Source: a virus
Taxonomy: Duplodnaviria; Caudoviricetes
DNA length: 64,000 nt
IMG/VR virus record: IMGVR_UViG_3300028914_000064
Location: 62,092 to 126,091 of that record
Strand: one strand, 5' to 3'
Shown here: positions 1,410 through 46,656 of the stretch, one piece after another
Layout: every line of letters starts with the position of its first letter
How positions within the stretch are numbered: position 1 is the stretch's first letter
Translations under genes and position numbers: made by a program
Notes under the pieces: model-generated
The model's input: the letters and a program-made list of their open reading frames with translations, nothing else
Told to the model about the DNA's origin: nothing
Databases searched by the model: none

Positions 1410-1711
1410 TATTGGTTACTGTGGGGGAGGGGCTCCCTCTCTCCCTTTAACATAGATTCATTATAAAATGACAAAAAATTTGTCTTGAAAACTAAGCCAC
1501 TATATCATGCTTCCTCCTTTTTATTTTTTAAAATGATTTGATTTTTCTAAATTTTCTTTTTCTTTTAATGCTTTCTCTGTTTCATTTTGAAATTCAGTTG
1601 TAAGTTCTTGAAATTGATCTTTAAGAACTTCTATACCAGATCTAAACCCAATAAAAAAACCAATAAAATAAATGATAATGATAATCATAATTTCAAGAAA
1701 TAATCTCATTA

Positions 1712-3883: not shown

Positions 3884-6800
3884 TTATTTAGTCCTTCCTA
3901 TTGTTTTTTCAAACTTTTCCCATAATTCACCGCAGTTTTTATGATATGTCGATACTTCTTCTTCGGTATAACATTTAATTACTACACCTTGGACATTATG
4001 CCAAATATCTCCGCGCCAATGTTTTTTGACAAGCTTATAATAATCTCTTTTTTCCATTATTCATCTCCATGCATATGTTTTATTATTTCGTTTATTTGTG
4101 GAAAGTAGCGCCCTGTCTTTTTGACTTTATGTTTCTCGGTTCTAAGTAATCCGTCCATATATTCTGACAATACCAAGATTGTTTCTTTATTTGCTTCAGC
4201 AATCACGATTCCTTTGCAATTTAATTGTGGAACATCTACTTCATCTCCAATCTTGATTTCATCTTCATACTGACTTTTCTCTAGCGATTTATAATAATCA
4301 TTAATTTTGGTTATTGCTTCTAAAGCTGTAAAAATCATAAATATCTCATAGGCAGAAAGATTGCCAAAGATTGCAATTACCCCATCTATTCCGATACCAC
4401 CATCTGTTTTGCTAAGCACAATCTTCCTTGCACATTCCCAAGCATCATTAAGACCTCGTTCATACGCATATACTGCATTTTTACGCTGATTACTATCGGC
4501 TTCTTCATATCCTTCTCTTCTTGCTCTCTTACATACATTAGCAAGGGCATTCATGATTTCTTCTTTATAATTCATTTTTTGGCTCCAGTTCTGATAATAG
4601 GTTGTCTATTTCATACTCAATATCATCTAAATCAACAATCCAAGTAGGCTCTTTGTCACAAAAACACACTGTGCTTTCAGGTTCCTCATAGGAATGATTT
4701 TTTAACTTGGTTTTTAATTCTTCGAGATAGGGCTTAACTATCTTCTGTTCTGTGATTTCATTCGCTTCTTCAATAATATCTCTAACAGTATTTTCATACT
4801 TGGGGTGGTTAATGTCATAATCAAGAATATCTCCGTACTCTCTTAACATCATTGCTTTATCTATGAATTCACGCTTTGCCATCTTCTTCAACCTCCTGCA
4901 ATACATCGTCTATATTTTCTCTCACTTCGCGCAACCACGCTCTTGCATCTGTTCTAGCTTTGTCCACGCTATTTTCATACGTTTCAAGCTCTGCCACCCT
5001 TACGATGTCTAAAATTAATTCAAGTGTTAGGCTTTCTAATTCTTTCATGCGTTCAAAGGCTCTATTGTCGCAATTTGTTTCGCCAACAGGCAGTATGCTA
5101 CCACCATTTAGCTTTTTAACTATTTCATAGAGATTGAAATTTTTCTCCATTTCTACATCCTCCTTTTTCTTCTTGATTATCTTCGCTTTTAACCCAATTA
5201 GGGCAATCTTTACAGTTCCAATCTGCTTCACAAATATATGGTTTTAAAGGTTCGTCATATATACAAGCCATCACTCCCACCCCTTTATCTTCTTGATTAT
5301 CTCTTTAACCCAATCGGGCAACGCGCATTTCCACATAGGCACGTCAAACTCATAATTGAAACAACAGCCGCAGTCCTCACACTCTCCCTCGTATGAGTAG
5401 CTATCCCAACTCATAGGGCAATTTTCGCAACATCTGTCTATTCCGTAGTGCTTCTTTTGCTTGCCGTTTTTTACTTCGTTCCAACTGAATAGTTCTAAAA
5501 CACCAATTCTCATTTTCCCCGTCCTCCTTACCATATGCATACATTGCCGTAATATTCGTCACACGCGTAATCCTCTTCAAAATCAATAGCACTAATTTTG
5601 TTTATAATATATTTTCTATCTATCAATTCACAATTTGTCATCTATATGCTCCTTAAGTTTACATTCATCTGTACCTTTAAAAGACATAAATGATATGTTC
5701 TTTATCGTTGGATGGCTATTTAGGTCTCTAACAAGTTGACCTCTAAAACAATTTCGGGGACAATCTTTGTTGTAATCTATACAATGAGAATAATCATGAT
5801 TCATTTTTTATTCCTCTTTTATTAATTCCAATCTTTATTCCATCCGCTTCCAAAAACTTTTTTACCATGTTCATATATAATTTCTTTGTCAAATTCTTCT
5901 CCTGAAACAGATCTATTATACTCAAAAGCTTTTGTGCTTTGATCGAGTATATAATCTTCACAAGAAAACATACATTTAAGTTTATTTTTCATTTTTCCTT
6001 CTTCATGATTAAATCTATTGCAGTTTTTACATTTTTCTATAGGATATTTATATTCTTCCATTCTTTTTTCTCTTATTCTTTTAATATATAAAAATCTATT
6101 TCTTCAAAAAGATGTTTGCAAGCTAGATGATATCCTTTGTCGATTGCATTGAGAGGTTCCCCTCCATTATCATCGTCACGAACCTGCATCCTTCTTCTTA
6201 GTTTATCGGGTATATCAACTTTTTCGTGTTTAGAGGAAAATCCTAATAACACTTTAGTATAGTAGAGTGCTGTGTTTAGGACTTCCTCTTAAACGTTATT
6301 TAGTTGATATTTTTGTTATCCCTCACCTTCACTTATATAAACTATCCTTTAATTTTTATAGGTTGTAATCCTTTATCGTTTAACGGTTTTTTGTATGGCT
6401 CAAAGTTTTCTGATAACGATTCTTTTGTTATCTCTAACCATTCACCCTTTTCGTTCTCCAAACGAATAGTGTCATAAGCTCCTACCATTCTAAATTCTGA
6501 TGTGTCTTGCTCCCATACAGAATCCTTATCAATATTTGTGTAACTATTGTCAATTGAAAAACCATTATCATCATAATTCTGTACTGAGAATGGTTTTACG
6601 CATTTGTACTTATTATTCATATCTTTACTTCTCCTTATCTGTCAAAATGTTTTTACAAAATTTCGTAAACACACTAAAGTTTACATATCCCTATTTTATT
6701 TCCATTTCTTTCCCTTTCATCAATCCATAGCACAGCTTCATCAGCATTATGAAAAAGTTTCATTTTTGTGCCTTTATCATAGCTAACTGAAATCATAGAT

Positions 6801-9929: not shown

Positions 9930-11224
9930 TATATTCTTTACTCGCTTTCATCCTATTTTGAAGATTTTTGTTTTTTCCAAAATAAAACAAGGTTTCTCAA
10001 ACTTATTATTCCACAAGTAAAAACCCAAGCTGCTAATAAAACAGAAGCTATAAAAGGAAATAAAGCTCTTTTTTTTAAAAATATTATTCCCCATGCAAGA
10101 TCCCTACCACTGCACACAAAACAGAACAATGTAATGAAAATAGAGGTAATAAATAATATAATGTCCTTTTTTTTATTCATGGAGACTCCTTTTTATCATT
10201 TGTTATTATTTCAAAATAATCACATTTTTAATGATATCATATTTATCTCCAATAAAAATATAATTGAGTCAGTCAATCATATCATTTTTGTTCTTTTTTC
10301 AATTGTTCCTGTGCTAATTCAAAAGCTAACATATATAATTCTAAGATACCGGTTTCTTCTTTGCCTATTTCGTCAATCCATTCGAAACAATCTTCATCTA
10401 TTTTTTTCAGTATTTCATAGGCTGCTTCTCCCAATCCCCTTTCTTCATCTAAATCATAAAGAATATCTTGAATTATATTTTCTTTAAGTTCTTCCTCGGA
10501 TATTTCTTGGTCATCCCATAAAAAATTTAGATATAAATCATAATCCATAAAACGTTCTATCAAGTCTTTTTTCCCTTTGTCATAATTATATTCATAAAAG
10601 GGTCTATTATGACAATTTACTTTACTTTCAAAATATCCAGTATTATGCACGAAATCAGAAAAACCTTCATAACACATATTATAATAATTAGTAGCAATCA
10701 GTTCTCCCAAATCGCCAGATATATGCAATCTATAAAAGTCTTCCTCAAAAAGAAATCTGATTCTAAAATGAGATGATTTGGGATTTGCAAAATCAAGTAT
10801 TTTAATATTGCCCAAATCTTTTAAACTAGCAACATGGTCTTTAAAGAATTCTTTTTGTTGTTCAATATTAAATCTCATTGATCTTTTTCCTCTCCTTCCA
10901 AATTTTGATCGAGGTTATTTTGATCTTCTTCAATACGGATTCCGTCATTTATGTAAATATATTCAGACATTTCTAAGATACGAGCTCCACAATATGGACA
11001 AAAAACATAGTCTTTATTTTTTTCGGGATCCCAAAAGCCTTGACAATTATGACAATAATAATCTGTATCAATGCCATTTTCTGTTTCAAGTTCTTTTTTT
11101 TCAATATATGTTGTATGTTCAGGAGCTATTATTTTAAGCTCTTCCAAACAATAATTATAGCCTTTATCAAAATCATCTAATACTGCACGTTTATATTCTG
11201 TTAAGTTTTCGATATAAGTAAGTC

Positions 11225-40508: not shown

Positions 40509-40655
40509 TTACTGATCCACGCCCAAACCGCAACAATTTCTGCATAATTCGTCTTCGTATCCACAATAATCTTCTGCATATGGACATTTATATTCTTTGA
40601 TTTCATTTCCATTTTCGTCATATTTGATTATTGGAATGTCGCATGGTGTATTCAT
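40509..40655 (-). CDS. 48-aa Cys-rich acidic peptide (not in ORF track)
   Basis: MNTPCDIPIIKYDENGNEIKEYKCPYAEDYCGYEDELCRNCCGLGVDQ; AAAGGAGA RBS. Confidence 0.7.
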   Translation of the reverse strand: MNTPCDIPIIKYDENGNEIKEYKCPYAEDYCGYEDELCRNCCGLGVDQ

Positions 40656-40803
40656 ATAATTATCTCCTTTCAATTTGACCATAAAACGTTGTTTCCGTAA
40701 TTTACTATTACTGATATGTCAGATAATTATAAATTGCCTTTTTGTTATTCTGTTACGTTATATGTAGTTTATATATGATTATCATTTCCCTTTAGGAAAT
40801 GTA

Positions 40804-40869
40804 AATGCTCCATGCGGAATCGAACCGCATCACGTGACGCAACGTAACGTGTTTTGCTTTTGGAGCATT
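40804..40869 (-). ncRNA. tRNA-like element lacking a D-arm (3' flank of the large RNA)
   Basis: AATGCTCCA/TGGAGCATT acceptor-like stem; TGCGG-TTCGATT-CCGCA T-arm; CACGTTACG-TTG-CGTCACGTG hairpin. Confidence 0.75.
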
Positions 40870-41925
40870 GGTGACTAACCCATATACAGTCAAGCCGACA
40901 TTTGCTTTCGCTTAAAGTAGTGCTAACGGCTTACTACTTACACACACCCTTTCCCTTCCTTGATTTCCCTCACTCTATTCGGAGCTTCCGTGTGTGTCAC
41001 TGTTTAACGTCAGACTGAGACGGTCATACTCGTGTGCAACGGATTAACATGACATAAACCGTTTATGAGAGCATAAGCTACTCATCCGAGAACTAGTCTT
41101 ACGACATGGGGATTGTTCCATGTCTGCTAAACTGATTACAATACACACTATAGACTTATTCACCTACTCTACGGACACTTTAAGTATTTGCTTGAGACTT
41201 ATTCCTTCACGCTCAAAGAGCTTGGCTCAATCGTACACTTAAAGCACCATGACAGAGTGATTTACTCGTATGGTTATCTGACCCTCTGTCAACGCTGAAT
41301 ACCCTCGAACAAACAGTATCTATACGTGTTTCATAACCTTTTATGACGTTCGGCTGTGTCAATCGCCTACTTCGTATTTTCCACGGAGTACTTTAACATA
41401 GCATATCTTACGCGCAACCACTTTTCTTCTCGCGTTATCATCCGCCCACATTTGGCAACGTGTGTTGAGACCTACTTAACCGTGGGACGAGCACTCATAC
41501 TCGCCGTGCCACTATCTTTAGCCCTTCTCCTAAGCTATGCTTAGAAGGTGCTACGTGCTACTTACTAATCCACTCGATGAAGCGTTGCCACGCTCACATC
41601 TTGCTGTTAGCTCATCTATAGACGTGTATCACAACTACGCTTACCTCCTTTCATCGTCTTATATTCGGACTCACGTTAATAATCACAGTAGGTGTATCTG
41701 CTACGTTTTCTCGCTTGTTCGTGACGGTTATACTGCGTTTATCGTGTTGTGCTTACTTGAGATATCTTGTATCCCTCTCGCCTTTATCCTCGAGCGAACA
41801 CTGACTAACCTTTATAGTTATAGAGTTTTATTTGTATGTGGAATGCTACATACGGAGCTACGTTGGTATCGGTTACGTATCAAACCTCTTTTATACAAGT
41901 GCCTAACGTTACTTGTGGAACGTAA
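40870..41925 (-). ncRNA. Putative giant structured non-coding RNA (~1.05 kb)
   Basis: No credible ORF; GC ~40-50% in sampled lines vs ~25-30% in flanks; more than 12 helices, several with G-U pairs favouring the minus strand; flanked by two tRNA mimics. Confidence 0.72.
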
Positions 41926-41971
41926 TTTGCGCTACGGAATCGAACCGTATAAATGCCCTTTACAACGCAAA
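41926..41971 (-). ncRNA. 46-nt tRNA minihelix-like element (5' flank of the large RNA)
   Basis: TTTGCGT/GCGCAAA 7-bp acceptor stem stacked on TACGG-TTCGATT-CCGTA T-arm with a 15-nt linker. Confidence 0.75.
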
Positions 41972-41995
41972 AAAAGAAGTGATTAAAAAAAATCC

Positions 41996-42025
41996 AAAAA
42001 TAGAAGGGCTTTTTAGCCCTTCTAT
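41996..42025 (-). terminator. Intrinsic terminator after first early gene
   Basis: ATAGAAGGGCT-TTTT-AGCCCTTCTAT perfect stem with minus-strand U tract. Confidence 0.75.
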
Positions 42026-42034
42026 GCCATTTTT

Positions 42035-42472
42035 TTAATTTTTGTTATAATTCATTGCTTTATCTCGCCCTTTTTGTACCCATTCTTTAGGAACGACAAG
42101 CCCTATACCTTTATGCTCTTTTTCAGTCCCTTCTTTAAAAATCATTGTTCTTGTTTCAAGTTTTTTAAACTGTGCTAACGTCCCACACCAAGCACCTTTG
42201 CGGTTATTATCACGTAAAGCAGTGTTCCAAAAAAAGCCAACGGATTTAATTAACTCTTTAGCGCCATTCCGTCCGTCGCCATAGCCAAGCAAAAAAGCTT
42301 TTTGCCCTTTAACTGTTACCATCTCGAGTTCTATACACTCTTCTTTAAGCTCTTTAACGATAGGTTGTTTGACTTTGGTTTTAGTTCCTAGTTTAATAAG
42401 TGCTTGTAATAATTCGTCCCTCTCATCATCAGTAAGTAACATTATGCTTCCTAACAATTCAAGTTTGTTCAT
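42035..42472 (-). CDS. First early gene, hypothetical (KE.IK..GF.W...K.AW motif)
   Basis: 145-aa ORF with GGAAGGTGG RBS; AKELIKSVGFFWN...KGAWCG. Confidence 0.75.
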   Translation of the reverse strand: MNKLELLGSIMLLTDDERDELLQALIKLGTKTKVKQPIVKELKEECIELEMVTVKGQKAFLLGYGDGRNGAKELIKSVGFFWNTALRDNNRKGAWCGTLAQFKKLETRTMIFKEGTEKEHKGIGLVVPKEWVQKGRDKAMNYNKN

Positions 42473-44043: not shown

Positions 44044-46656
44044 ATGTCACAGTATGGTCTTCGTATCATGAATTTTGAAGCTGCTTCTATTTATGAATAC
44101 ATGAATGGTTTTCGTGATAGACTTGATTCTACGAAAGCAATGTTGGTCAATAGCCTTTTTTTAGATTTTTTATTAGATAATGATTTGCTAATAATCTCCC
44201 AAGGAGATTTTACAAGAAGCATAATTTGTCTTCAATTTGGATATGGTACAAAAGACTATGAGACAATGAAAAAGAGATTGATTGGTAAAGAAGAGGAACA
44301 TTTTAAAACTATCCTTTCAAATATTGAAAAGAATAAAGATAAATGCGTTAAAATTTCAAAAGAAGATCTAAGAGTTAAATATTATACTGAAGGCGTAACA
44401 ATTACTTATAAGACTTTTACTAAAAATGGCAAAGAACTTAAGAACAGAAGAAATACCATCCATTATAAGATGCTATATAGGACTCCCGGTAAAGCAAAAA
44501 AAGGAACCTGTATGTTTATAGATTCTAGGATATATGATAAAGTTCATAATTTTCTTTATATGGGAATTAAATTGCCTATTGAAAGAGCTCCAATTGTTGA
44601 AATGGGAGCTTACTCTTCGCTCATAACAAGTTCTATTATTGGACGAGTAAAAATTCTTCCGGAAGAAATTTTAATTTTAAAAGATATTGACTCTATTTTT
44701 AAAACAAAAGTTTTATCTGTGGAAACTGATGAAAACAAAAAAACATTTATCAAGGAGAAAGAGAATTATGAAGTAATTAATACTCTCTTCGATGGACAAG
44801 CTCTTATTGATGAATCCATCTTTCCGGAGTGGGCAGATGGGTATGTCTTATTGCGTCATCATATGACTAAAGTTGCGGCATTTAAAACAAGACTTCAAAA
44901 ATTTTTTAAGGATTATTATGGTACAGATTATGAAAATGCAAAAGTCAAAGATATGTTTGGTAGGATTGTTAAAATTAAAGATGTGAAATTAGTCACAACT
45001 GATAATGCCATCAAATGGAAAAAATTTGGAGTTGGATTTGATTATTGGGCTTCATGGGTTAGACGTAATGGATGTCAATTTGGGATAGTTAAGACATCAC
45101 ATGAATCTAAGCTTGGAGATGTGCAGCGTATGAGTTATCAGATGATGAATTCGCTCGATATTGAATCTATGCCAAGTGTTTGTAGTAAAACTGTAGAATA
45201 TATAAACAATCTTAAAAACAATGACGAGATTTTTTTAGATTTCTTGGAAAAAAATAAAAATTTTGCAAATGATTTTGAAGTTTTGATTGCGCTTTATAGG
45301 CACAATTCAGATTTTTCAAAAAGCGCATATTTTAGAGAACGTAGGCAAGCCATAATAAATTCATATGTTTTAAATTTCAAAAATGGACATAGTATACAAA
45401 ATGCAGATAACTTAACGATTGTAGGCTCTCCTTATGCTCTTCTGCTCCATTCAGTAAATGAGGATCCATTTAGCGATCCTACTCTTCGTCCAGAAGAAGG
45501 AACAATACAATGTTATACTGAACGTTTTGAGGATGGAGAATATCTTGCTGCATTTAGGTCTCCTCATAATTCTAGAAATAATATTGTTTATCTTCATAAT
45601 AAGAAACATGAATTGTTGAAGAAATATTTTGATTTGGGGAATTATTGTATAGCTGTGAATATGATCGAAACAGATTTCCAATCAAGGGCAAATGGAGCGG
45701 ATCAGGATTCAGATACTATATATACAACAAACCAAAAAGAAATAGTAGAACATGCAAAAAGATGTTATATAGATTATCCGACTATTGTAAATAACATTCC
45801 GAAAGATGCAAATATCTATAATTATGATATGAGAGATTTTGCATTGGTTGATAATAGTCTTGCGGCTTCTCAGCTTGCGATTGGAGAATCTTCTAACTTG
45901 GCTCAGATTGCTTTAACATACACTTATAATTTTGAAGATAGAAAATATTCCGATTATGTTTGCATTTTAGCTGTATTAGCGCAGGTTGCTGTAGATAGTT
46001 CAAAAAGGCGTTTCGATATTTCTTTGTCCGAAGAAATATCCAGGATAAAAAAAGATATGGATATTACGGAAAACGGACTCCCCTTTTTTTGGCTTATAAC
46101 TAAAAGAGATAAACGAAAAGTGCATTCTGATGAACAAAGAAAAGAACGTGATCGAATAAATAAAATAAAAATCAAGAAGAAAATCGAACCATCATTAGAT
46201 TGTCCAATGAATTATCTTTACCGATTAAGACTCGATCGGACAAAGTATGATTCTCCTTCTTTACCGATGGATAATTTTTGGATAAGACATGATATTGAAA
46301 ATGGTCGCCGTAAATCAAGACTTGTAGAGAATCTTATTGAAAAATATTCTCTTAGACTTTATAACTACAACGCCGCAGATGAAAAGGATTCTTCTGATTA
46401 TCTTTTGCTTAGAGAAGATTTTGATGAGCTCATTTCAGATATACAGAGAATCTATATTTCAAAAAATTACCTTGGAATGATGAGTTGGCTTATCAATAGA
46501 GCTTTTATGATTGGGAGTGGGGTTCAACAGAATAAGAATAGTCTTAGCTCAAAATTATATAAGAATAGAGCTTTGTTACTTAAAGTACTATATATTGTAT
46601 CTCCAGAAGTTTTTTTACAATGTTTTGTAGAAAAGTGTACACCTAAACAAGAATAG
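44044..46656 (+). CDS. yonO: YonO-like single-subunit DNA-dependent RNA polymerase
   Basis: 870 aa; YKMLYRTPGKAKKG, LFDGQALID, LLRHHMTK, QRMSYQM, AFRSPHN and catalytic GADQDSD (DxDxD); sits upstream of the structural genes. Confidence 0.9.
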   Translation: MSQYGLRIMNFEAASIYEYMNGFRDRLDSTKAMLVNSLFLDFLLDNDLLIISQGDFTRSIICLQFGYGTKDYETMKKRLIGKEEEHFKTILSNIEKNKDKCVKISKEDLRVKYYTEGVTITYKTFTKNGKELKNRRNTIHYKMLYRTPGKAKKGTCMFIDSRIYDKVHNFLYMGIKLPIERAPIVEMGAYSSLITSSIIGRVKILPEEILILKDIDSIFKTKVLSVETDENKKTFIKEKENYEVINTLFDGQALIDESIFPEWADGYVLLRHHMTKVAAFKTRLQKFFKDYYGTDYENAKVKDMFGRIVKIKDVKLVTTDNAIKWKKFGVGFDYWASWVRRNGCQFGIVKTSHESKLGDVQRMSYQMMNSLDIESMPSVCSKTVEYINNLKNNDEIFLDFLEKNKNFANDFEVLIALYRHNSDFSKSAYFRERRQAIINSYVLNFKNGHSIQNADNLTIVGSPYALLLHSVNEDPFSDPTLRPEEGTIQCYTERFEDGEYLAAFRSPHNSRNNIVYLHNKKHELLKKYFDLGNYCIAVNMIETDFQSRANGADQDSDTIYTTNQKEIVEHAKRCYIDYPTIVNNIPKDANIYNYDMRDFALVDNSLAASQLAIGESSNLAQIALTYTYNFEDRKYSDYVCILAVLAQVAVDSSKRRFDISLSEEISRIKKDMDITENGLPFFWLITKRDKRKVHSDEQRKERDRINKIKIKKKIEPSLDCPMNYLYRLRLDRTKYDSPSLPMDNFWIRHDIENGRRKSRLVENLIEKYSLRLYNYNAADEKDSSDYLLLREDFDELISDIQRIYISKNYLGMMSWLINRAFMIGSGVQQNKNSLSSKLYKNRALLLKVLYIVSPEVFLQCFVEKCTPKQE

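Follow-up and report, generated by a model that had tools for sequence, protein, structure and literature searches.

A tRNA-like structure without a D arm or an anticodon loop at the 3' edge of a giant phage RNA, a probable RNA-processing signal

The DNA analyzed here (referred to as the window; 64,000 nucleotides) is the second half of a 126-kb IMG/VR contig, IMGVR_UViG_3300028914_000064, from an uncultured phage and about 67% complete. Two gene arms diverge, one directed leftward from ~42.5 kb and the other rightward from ~42.9 kb; the first products of the latter are an 870-aa protein and a ClpP-type head protease. The 870-aa protein (44044-46656, plus strand) carries an invariant N-G-A-D-Q-D-S-D motif and belongs to PHROG 8308 (function unknown); it had no match in Pfam or in the PDB, and hundreds of relatives were found in rumen and gut phage contigs. 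Using this protein as a neighboring marker, we gathered ~160 related loci from IMG/VR and metagenomes, which are denoted by L numbers below. The leftward arm runs from a 145-aa gene through a terminator-like hairpin, a first tRNA-like structure (TLS1), a 1,056-nt RNA (hereafter the giant RNA), a second tRNA-like structure (TLS2), a small hairpin, and an AT-rich spacer to the next gene. The features of the leftward arm were as follows:

42035-42472, minus strand: 145-aa gene, upstream of the terminator-like hairpin and TLS1
42000-42025, minus strand: hairpin resembling an intrinsic terminator, with a U run, after the 145-aa gene and 28 nt before TLS1
41926-41971, minus strand: TLS1, a minimal tRNA-like minihelix of 46 nt (7-bp acceptor, 15-nt linker, 5-bp T stem, and UUCGAUU loop)
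40870-41925, minus strand: giant RNA, a conserved, structured non-coding RNA of 1,056 nt between TLS1 and TLS2
40804-40869, minus strand: TLS2, a tRNA-like structure of 66 nt without a D arm, recognized from sequence, fold, orthologues, and covariation
40783-40801, minus strand: small conserved hairpin directly 3' of TLS2

The giant RNA occupies the only kb-scale ORF-poor gap of the region, and no credible ORF was found in its 1,056 nt. On its upstream side, a terminator-like hairpin is found ~10-30 nt before TLS1 in L002, L097, L004, and L049 as well, and the interval between this hairpin and TLS1 is too short for a sigma-70 promoter. To be transcribed, the giant RNA seems to need either read-through or a polymerase on which the terminator has no effect. 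On the downstream side, the small hairpin at 40783-40801 is identical in L097, keeps its pairing in L002, and also appears in the fold of the whole transcript, with no U run behind it. It is followed by the AT-rich spacer and by a ribosome-binding site and start codon near 40655. The first gene past TLS2 (40509-40655, minus strand) has a strong ribosome-binding site and encodes a small Cys-rich protein of ~48 aa, for which no family match was found. No terminator was present 3' of TLS2, and in most loci the next ribosome-binding site and ATG lie within 20-150 nt. With no terminator after TLS2 and the next gene so close, the giant RNA would have to be cut out of the operon transcript.

The first-pass annotation had read the minus strand of 40804-40869 as an acceptor-like stem, an A-rich single strand, a hairpin, and a T arm, and this reading was reproduced by both the MFE and the centroid folds, which agreed on an acceptor stem of 8 bp (40862-40869/40804-40811). 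An A-rich, single-stranded linker of 10 nt (40852-40861) takes the position of the D arm. It is followed by a hairpin of 9 bp including one U.C mismatch (40843-40851/40831-40839), capped by a UUG loop (40840-40842), and by the T arm (40812-40830), with a 6-bp stem (40825-40830/40812-40817) and the loop UUCGAUU (40818-40824). The folding energy was -25.6 kcal/mol (z = -3.7), none of 200 shuffled sequences was as stable, and the local fold was retained when the whole 1.2-kb transcript was folded. The acceptor and T stems of TLS2 would stack to 13-14 bp (7-8 + 6), compared to 12 bp in canonical tRNAs, while the stack of TLS1 has the canonical 12 bp.

TLS2 was compared feature by feature with canonical tRNAs (RF00005/ARAGORN). 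Its T arm has the U-U/G-C-R-A loop, the G53-C61 closure, and the stacking on the acceptor that are expected of a tRNA. The D arm is missing, with the linker in its place, and instead of an anticodon arm with a 5-bp stem and a 7-nt loop containing U33 there is a stem of 9 bp with a loop of 3 nt, so that the earlier statement that this is not a standard tRNA-Gln was correct. The failure of tRNA finders had also been anticipated; ARAGORN called neither a tRNA nor a tmRNA in the window, its permissive mitochondrial mode likewise missed TLS2, and the whole 126-kb contig yielded 0 tRNA genes and 0 tmRNAs. Many relatives have tRNA arrays downstream of the 870-aa gene, compared to none in this contig, and a gene for a CCA-adding enzyme was absent from the contig searched (126 kb, ~67% complete). 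No Rfam model matched TLS2 at its gathering score. The sole weak match was to tRNA-Sec (21 bits; cut-off, 47), a match consistent with the long acceptor/T stack of TLS2.

From its overall shape, TLS2 had also been likened to the tRNA-like domain of tmRNA or to bacterial Y RNA, in which case it could be a mimic binding SmpB/AlaRS or Ro60. All of these indeed share an acceptor and a T arm and have a loop instead of the D stem. The acceptor of tmRNA consists of the joined 5' and 3' ends of an RNA of ~300-400 nt that encloses a tag ORF and pseudoknots, and its G3.U70 is the alanine identity pair. TLS2, however, is a self-contained fold of 66 nt that encloses no tag reading frame, and its third acceptor pair is not G.U but C-G (in 7-bp numbering) or G-C (in 8-bp numbering). 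ARAGORN found no tmRNA in the window or the contig, and Rfam gave no match to tmRNA, Y RNA, or YrlA even at E values up to 10. As for Y RNA, the Ro60 family (TROVE, PF05731) was absent from the 126-kb contig, itself ~67% complete. Neither likeness was supported by these results, and we consider a mimic of this kind very improbable.

With a scanner for an acceptor combined with a T arm, which requires the acceptor and the T stem to be fully paired, TLS1 and TLS2 were the only matches in the 126-kb contig, while 20 shuffles gave 3 matches in total. The two elements bracket the giant RNA, one at either edge of the non-coding gap. Their T stems differ as had been noted (UACGG/CCGUA in TLS1 versus UGCGG/CCGCA in TLS2), but this is a comparison of paralogues within one phage, and real evidence for covariation has to come from orthologues.

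The last 24 nt of the giant RNA (40870-40893) form a conserved block adjoining TLS2, so that TLS2 lies at the 3' edge of the giant RNA, downstream of it as first described. The giant RNA is absent from Rfam 15, and the GOLLD (RF02032) and ROOL (RF03087) models gave no match to 40780-42000 at E values up to 10. A blastn search of 40600-42100 against 50,697 phage records returned no match, and a 25-nt pattern from the giant RNA recovered only the already known relatives from IMG/VR. When its alignment was used with nhmmer, the RNA was detected in six distinct phages only (the window, L002, L097, L003, L004, and L006), among which the shared blocks keep their order. More distant members were recognized solely by the order of motifs and by short collinear BLAST blocks. 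The repeated sub-motifs, which follow one another in a fixed order across relatives, are AGAUAAC...GURAAUCAC, GUAGAGUA, GAAUAAGUC, and UUGACACA.

Among the distant loci, L160 has a 27-nt block that is 96% identical to the window (E = 7.6e-7) and abuts the tRNA-like structure in both, together with blocks collinear with L004 (E = 5.8e-5) and the same order of motifs. By these sequence matches, its RNA is demonstrably the same RNA as that of the window. L173 is joined to L160 through 5' blocks and L099 is weakly linked; as judged from such blocks, homology of the giant RNA is thus firmly supported in L160, partly in L173, and weakly in L099. In L160, the GOLLD model also recognizes a gene distinct from this RNA (10405-10902, plus strand), a bona fide GOLLD RNA scoring 164 bits and lying 48 nt upstream of a tRNA (10951-11022). 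Two different giant RNAs thus occur in one phage, GOLLD and the RNA bounded by tRNA-like structures, and since L160 has both, the RNA of the window belongs to a different family. The GOLLD gene of L160 also illustrates that giant RNAs of this phage group do have real tRNAs beside them. Another related phage locus, L031, contains a HEARO RNA (IS605-type omega RNA) at 5300-5514 on the plus strand (133 bits).

A tRNA-like structure of the same architecture was found at the 3' edge of the giant RNA in L002, L097, L004, and L006. The first-pass annotation had named an unprocessed and unconserved element as an outcome that would speak against it; these orthologues at the same 3' edge show that the element is conserved. 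Each of the four folds alike when folded singly (z = -2.0 to -4.0), and in the window, L002, L097, and L160 the structure directly abuts the conserved 3'-terminal block. Orthologues of TLS1 were found in L002, L097, L004, L003, and L049. A covariance model built from three close TLS2 sequences (R1) was overly specific, in that L004 and L006 were matched only at E values of ~0.5-5; it added the TLS1 of L049.

Since MAFFT failed to align the 5' acceptor strands across clades, covariation was counted on 15 of these structures in a script-made alignment anchored on the T loop. Four to six pair types were seen at each acceptor position and four to five at positions 2-4 of the T stem. Of 188 cells in this alignment, 186 were paired, compared with 33-55% when the partner was slid by 1-3 positions; full pairing was, however, a selection criterion of the scanner, so this high percentage is partly built in. 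The independent evidence for covariation, which is informative, is the variety of pair types, the folds of single sequences, and the conservation of position. Pairs of orthologues differed by 3-7 double compensatory changes in the acceptor. Between L004 and L006, for instance, the acceptor had three such changes and the T stem had one; when the window was compared with L004 and with L160, the numbers of doubles were 5-6 (acceptor) and 2-3 (T stem). For TLS1, two doubles were found among the close relatives (window, L002, and L097). Taken with the fold, these observations support the view that TLS2 is a true tRNA-like structure under selection, with neither a D arm nor an anticodon loop, and not a decoding tRNA.

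They also bear on whether TLS2 could be a decaying pseudo-tRNA, the relic of a tRNA island of the GOLLD/ROOL type with no present function. Related phages have real tRNA arrays, the GOLLD gene of L160 adjoins a tRNA, one GOLLD gene has been described as containing a pseudo-tRNA (PMC6582537), and the tRNA-like structures of the relatives grade from cloverleaf-like forms to minihelices, all of which would suit such an origin. Yet both stems stay paired through many double substitutions despite the turnover of sequence. The T-loop motif and the pairs closing the T loop, G52-C62 and G53-C61 (the latter as in tRNAs), were invariant in 15 of 15 sequences, and the position at the RNA edge is fixed across divergent phages. 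Kept pairing, invariant T-loop features, and fixed position together make neutral decay unlikely, and we regard a functionless relic as improbable.

We also considered that TLS2 could be a phage attachment site, or the captured 3' half of a host tRNA used for integration. tRNA genes are frequent integration sites of phages, which then carry the target's T arm and 3' acceptor strand. In TLS2, however, both acceptor strands are present and covary, and two such elements flank the giant RNA. The exact 21 nt of the TLS2 3' half matched once in GTDB genomes of ~185,000 species, in an unrelated soil actinobacterial MAG in which the site was not called as a tRNA by ARAGORN, and an exact 21-nt search of IMG/VR found nothing. 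We regard an integration site as very improbable.

Across relatives, only the acceptor and the T arm were constant, while the linker, the length of the hairpin (5-9 bp), and its loop (3-12 nt) varied. Four-arm forms were seen in L099, L173, and L092 and three-arm forms in the window clade, L004, and L006; the distant relatives L099, L173, L092, L168, and L174 have a second hairpin and the look of an odd cloverleaf, and TLS1 of the window and of L002 is a bare minihelix of 7 + 5 bp. The acceptor/T-arm stack is the minimal, sufficient substrate for RNase P, RNase Z, and the CCA-adding enzyme, and RNase P and RNase Z do not need a hairpin of the TLS2 type. Within the window clade, the TLS2 hairpin is nevertheless kept and covaries (9, 8, and 5 bp). 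In more distant relatives, the hairpin loop is G-G-C-U-U-A-A-C-C with a UUAA core (L092:4213-4312, L099:2349-2425, L032:1247-1322, and L043:196-284, all on the minus strand); AUUAA variants of this loop occur in L168, L160, and L173, and it has been lost in the window clade.

Two T-loop sequences, UUCGAYU and UGCAAYU, are used in alternation, and even close relatives, or the two structures of one phage, can differ in this respect. UUCGAUU is present in TLS2 of the window, and UGCAAUU replaces it in L002 (~4092-4098) and in the TLS1 of L097 and L004. Both forms fit the general T-loop motif U-(U/G)-N-R-A. The switch to UGCAAYU would remove U55, the pseudouridine site. None of the 15 structures had an encoded CCA or a C74, and the discriminator was U in 13 of them; in the real tRNAs of related phages, the discriminator was A or G in two thirds and U in 25%, and C74 was present in 58%. 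CCA is an anti-determinant of RNase Z.

At the 5' edge of the ~1-kb non-coding region, two kinds of element were found. In four relatives, this edge is occupied by a pistol ribozyme (RF02679):

L160, 2279-2348, minus strand: pistol ribozyme at the 5' edge of the ~1-kb non-coding region
L099, 3453-3517, minus strand: pistol ribozyme at the 5' edge of the ~1-kb non-coding region
L173 (phage of L021), 1501-1571, minus strand: pistol ribozyme at the 5' edge of the ~1-kb non-coding region
L174 (phage of L031), 1501-1576, plus strand: pistol ribozyme at the 5' edge of the ~1-kb non-coding region

All four were full length, scored 65-74 bits against a cut-off of 34.5, and lay on the same strand as the non-coding region. 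Each was followed ~1.03-1.19 kb downstream by a tRNA-like structure with a 7-bp acceptor; the spacing between TLS1 and TLS2 in the window is 1,056 nt. Some other relatives have a second tRNA-like structure at the 5' edge, as the window has with TLS1, and no pistol ribozyme was found in the window itself. Self-cleavage by the pistol ribozyme takes place a few nucleotides short of its 3' end, which makes the ribozyme a device that gives the RNA downstream of it a clean 5' end. Since it is found where the window has TLS1, the simplest reading of the boundary elements is that they are processing sites.

TLS2 also has what would be looked for in such a site, being a non-decoding mimic of the acceptor and T arm that lies at an RNA boundary, on the same strand, with no terminator behind it and the next gene following. 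Its fixed position at the 3' edge, the interchangeability of its 5' counterpart with a pistol ribozyme, and the constancy of the acceptor and T arm fit an RNA-processing signal. We therefore favor, with a probability of roughly 0.6, the reading that TLS2 is a tRNA-like "punctuation" signal for the tRNA-processing enzymes of the host. In such a model, the leftward early operon would be transcribed through the 145-aa gene, TLS1, the giant RNA, TLS2, and the downstream genes. Of a tRNA, each structure retains only the coaxial acceptor/T-arm stack with a T loop, the part that is read by host RNase P, RNase Z, and CCA-adding enzyme. RNase P would cut at the 5' side of each structure and RNase Z after the discriminator. 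A cut near 40869/40870, on the 5' side of TLS2, would separate the giant RNA from the downstream mRNA and give it its mature 3' end; its 5' end would come from a cut at TLS1, and TLS2 would be set free as a ~65-nt small RNA. That RNase P and RNase Z cut at TLS2, and where exactly they do so, we infer.

Some features sit less easily with this processing model. The strong terminator just upstream of TLS1 counts against it, as the entry of transcription is left unexplained. The model does not account for the 13-14-bp stack of TLS2, for which the cut site or its efficiency could differ, nor for the near-invariant U73 and the maintained TLS2 hairpin. We also considered circularization of the giant RNA through the 5'-phosphate and 3'-OH ends that RNase P and RNase Z would leave, and rejected it because the relatives led by a pistol ribozyme would have a 5'-OH.

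Conservation of the TLS2 hairpin and U73 beyond the needs of a minimal substrate would be better understood if TLS2 were retained on the giant RNA as a functional handle, possibly gaining CCA, that protects the 3' end or docks on tRNA-binding machinery (the ribosome, EF-Tu, the CCA-adding enzyme, or RNase P). The T-loop motif is kept even where it departs from the tRNA consensus, as in the UGCAAUU loops of L002 and of the TLS1 of L097 and L004, and the literature reports tRNAs covalently embedded in GOLLD as well as a ribosome pull-down of GOLLD. Against a handle, the ribozyme that can stand in for the structure at the 5' edge is known for no activity other than cutting, the hairpin varies freely in loop and length, and acceptor sequences are wholly different between relatives, which indicates that no aminoacylation identity has been conserved. 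We consider a retained handle possible but unlikely. We are slightly more doubtful of a broader version, in which TLS2 serves as a tRNA-shaped handle or decoy, either still attached to the giant RNA or set free as a small RNA tagged with CCA. It would then dock a possibly multimeric giant RNA on the ribosome, EF-Tu, or tRNA-processing enzymes, or would soak up a tRNA-targeting defence nuclease of the host. If the handle or decoy reading were true, the link between giant phage RNAs (GOLLD, ROOL, and the RNA of the window) and tRNAs would reflect function and not maturation alone.

Under the favored processing model, on the other hand, the link between giant RNAs and tRNAs would have a testable answer, namely that the tRNA-shaped neighbors are cut marks that free the giant RNA from the operon transcript. 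Pistol ribozymes would gain a concrete biological role, and the series of tRNA-like structures, from odd cloverleaf to bare minihelix, would show how far a natural substrate of RNase P and RNase Z can be reduced. The model also predicts the exact mature ends of the giant RNA, which would be useful for expressing and imaging it.

Several elements of this picture are already known, i.e., tRNA-like processing signals, GOLLD and ROOL genes beside tRNAs, and a pseudo-tRNA within GOLLD. In the literature, we found no paper on degenerate tRNA-like structures without a D arm that bracket a giant phage RNA and are interchangeable with a pistol ribozyme. In form, TLS2 can be compared with metazoan mitochondrial tRNA-Ser(AGY), in which a short linker likewise stands in for the D arm and the other stems are kept. 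That tRNA, however, keeps a 7-nt anticodon loop and decodes, whereas TLS2 has a loop of 3 nt and is missed by the mitochondrial mode of ARAGORN. With the tmRNA tRNA-like domain and YrlA, it shares the acceptor and T arm and the loop instead of a D stem, but not the tag ORF, the G3.U70 pair, detection by ARAGORN or Rfam, or an accompanying Ro60 gene.

As to the giant RNA, GOLLD and ROOL form RNA-only cages, and to our knowledge there is no established reason for their association with tRNAs. These large, ornate phage RNAs habitually lie beside, or contain, tRNAs or pseudo-tRNAs (RF02032, RF03087; 10.1101/2024.12.08.627333; PMC12990946; PMC6582537). The RNA of the window resembles them as a giant phage RNA beside elements of tRNA type, but it matches neither model and its flanking elements are not real tRNAs. 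It is thus a third giant phage RNA, with stripped-down tRNA look-alikes as neighbors instead of working tRNAs.

For the proposed function of TLS2, the closest parallels lie in RNA maturation. The t-elements of plant mitochondria and mitochondrial tRNA punctuation (PMC1920247) are degenerate tRNA-like signals for RNase P and RNase Z that delimit neighboring RNAs in polycistronic transcripts; those are organellar and bound mRNAs, whereas the RNA bounded by TLS2 is a structured, non-coding one of 1 kb within a phage operon. In MALAT1 (PMC8457004), cleavage by RNase P at the mascRNA fold makes the mature 3' end of the lncRNA and frees a small tRNA-like RNA. Like mascRNA and its MEN-beta counterpart (MALAT1 and NEAT1; PMC8457004), TLS2 is a non-decoding tRNA-like fold directly 3' of a long non-coding RNA in one transcript. 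The former are eukaryotic, nuclear, and cloverleaf-shaped, while TLS2 belongs to a phage and its bacterium, has no D arm, and is predicted to be cleaved, and the RNA that it bounds has its 5' end marked as well, by a tRNA-like structure or a ribozyme. The pistol ribozyme (RF02679; PMC4604425) stands in for TLS1 in four relatives, where it lies at the 5' edge of the syntenic ~1-kb region, and differs from it in being self-cutting, with no need of a host enzyme.
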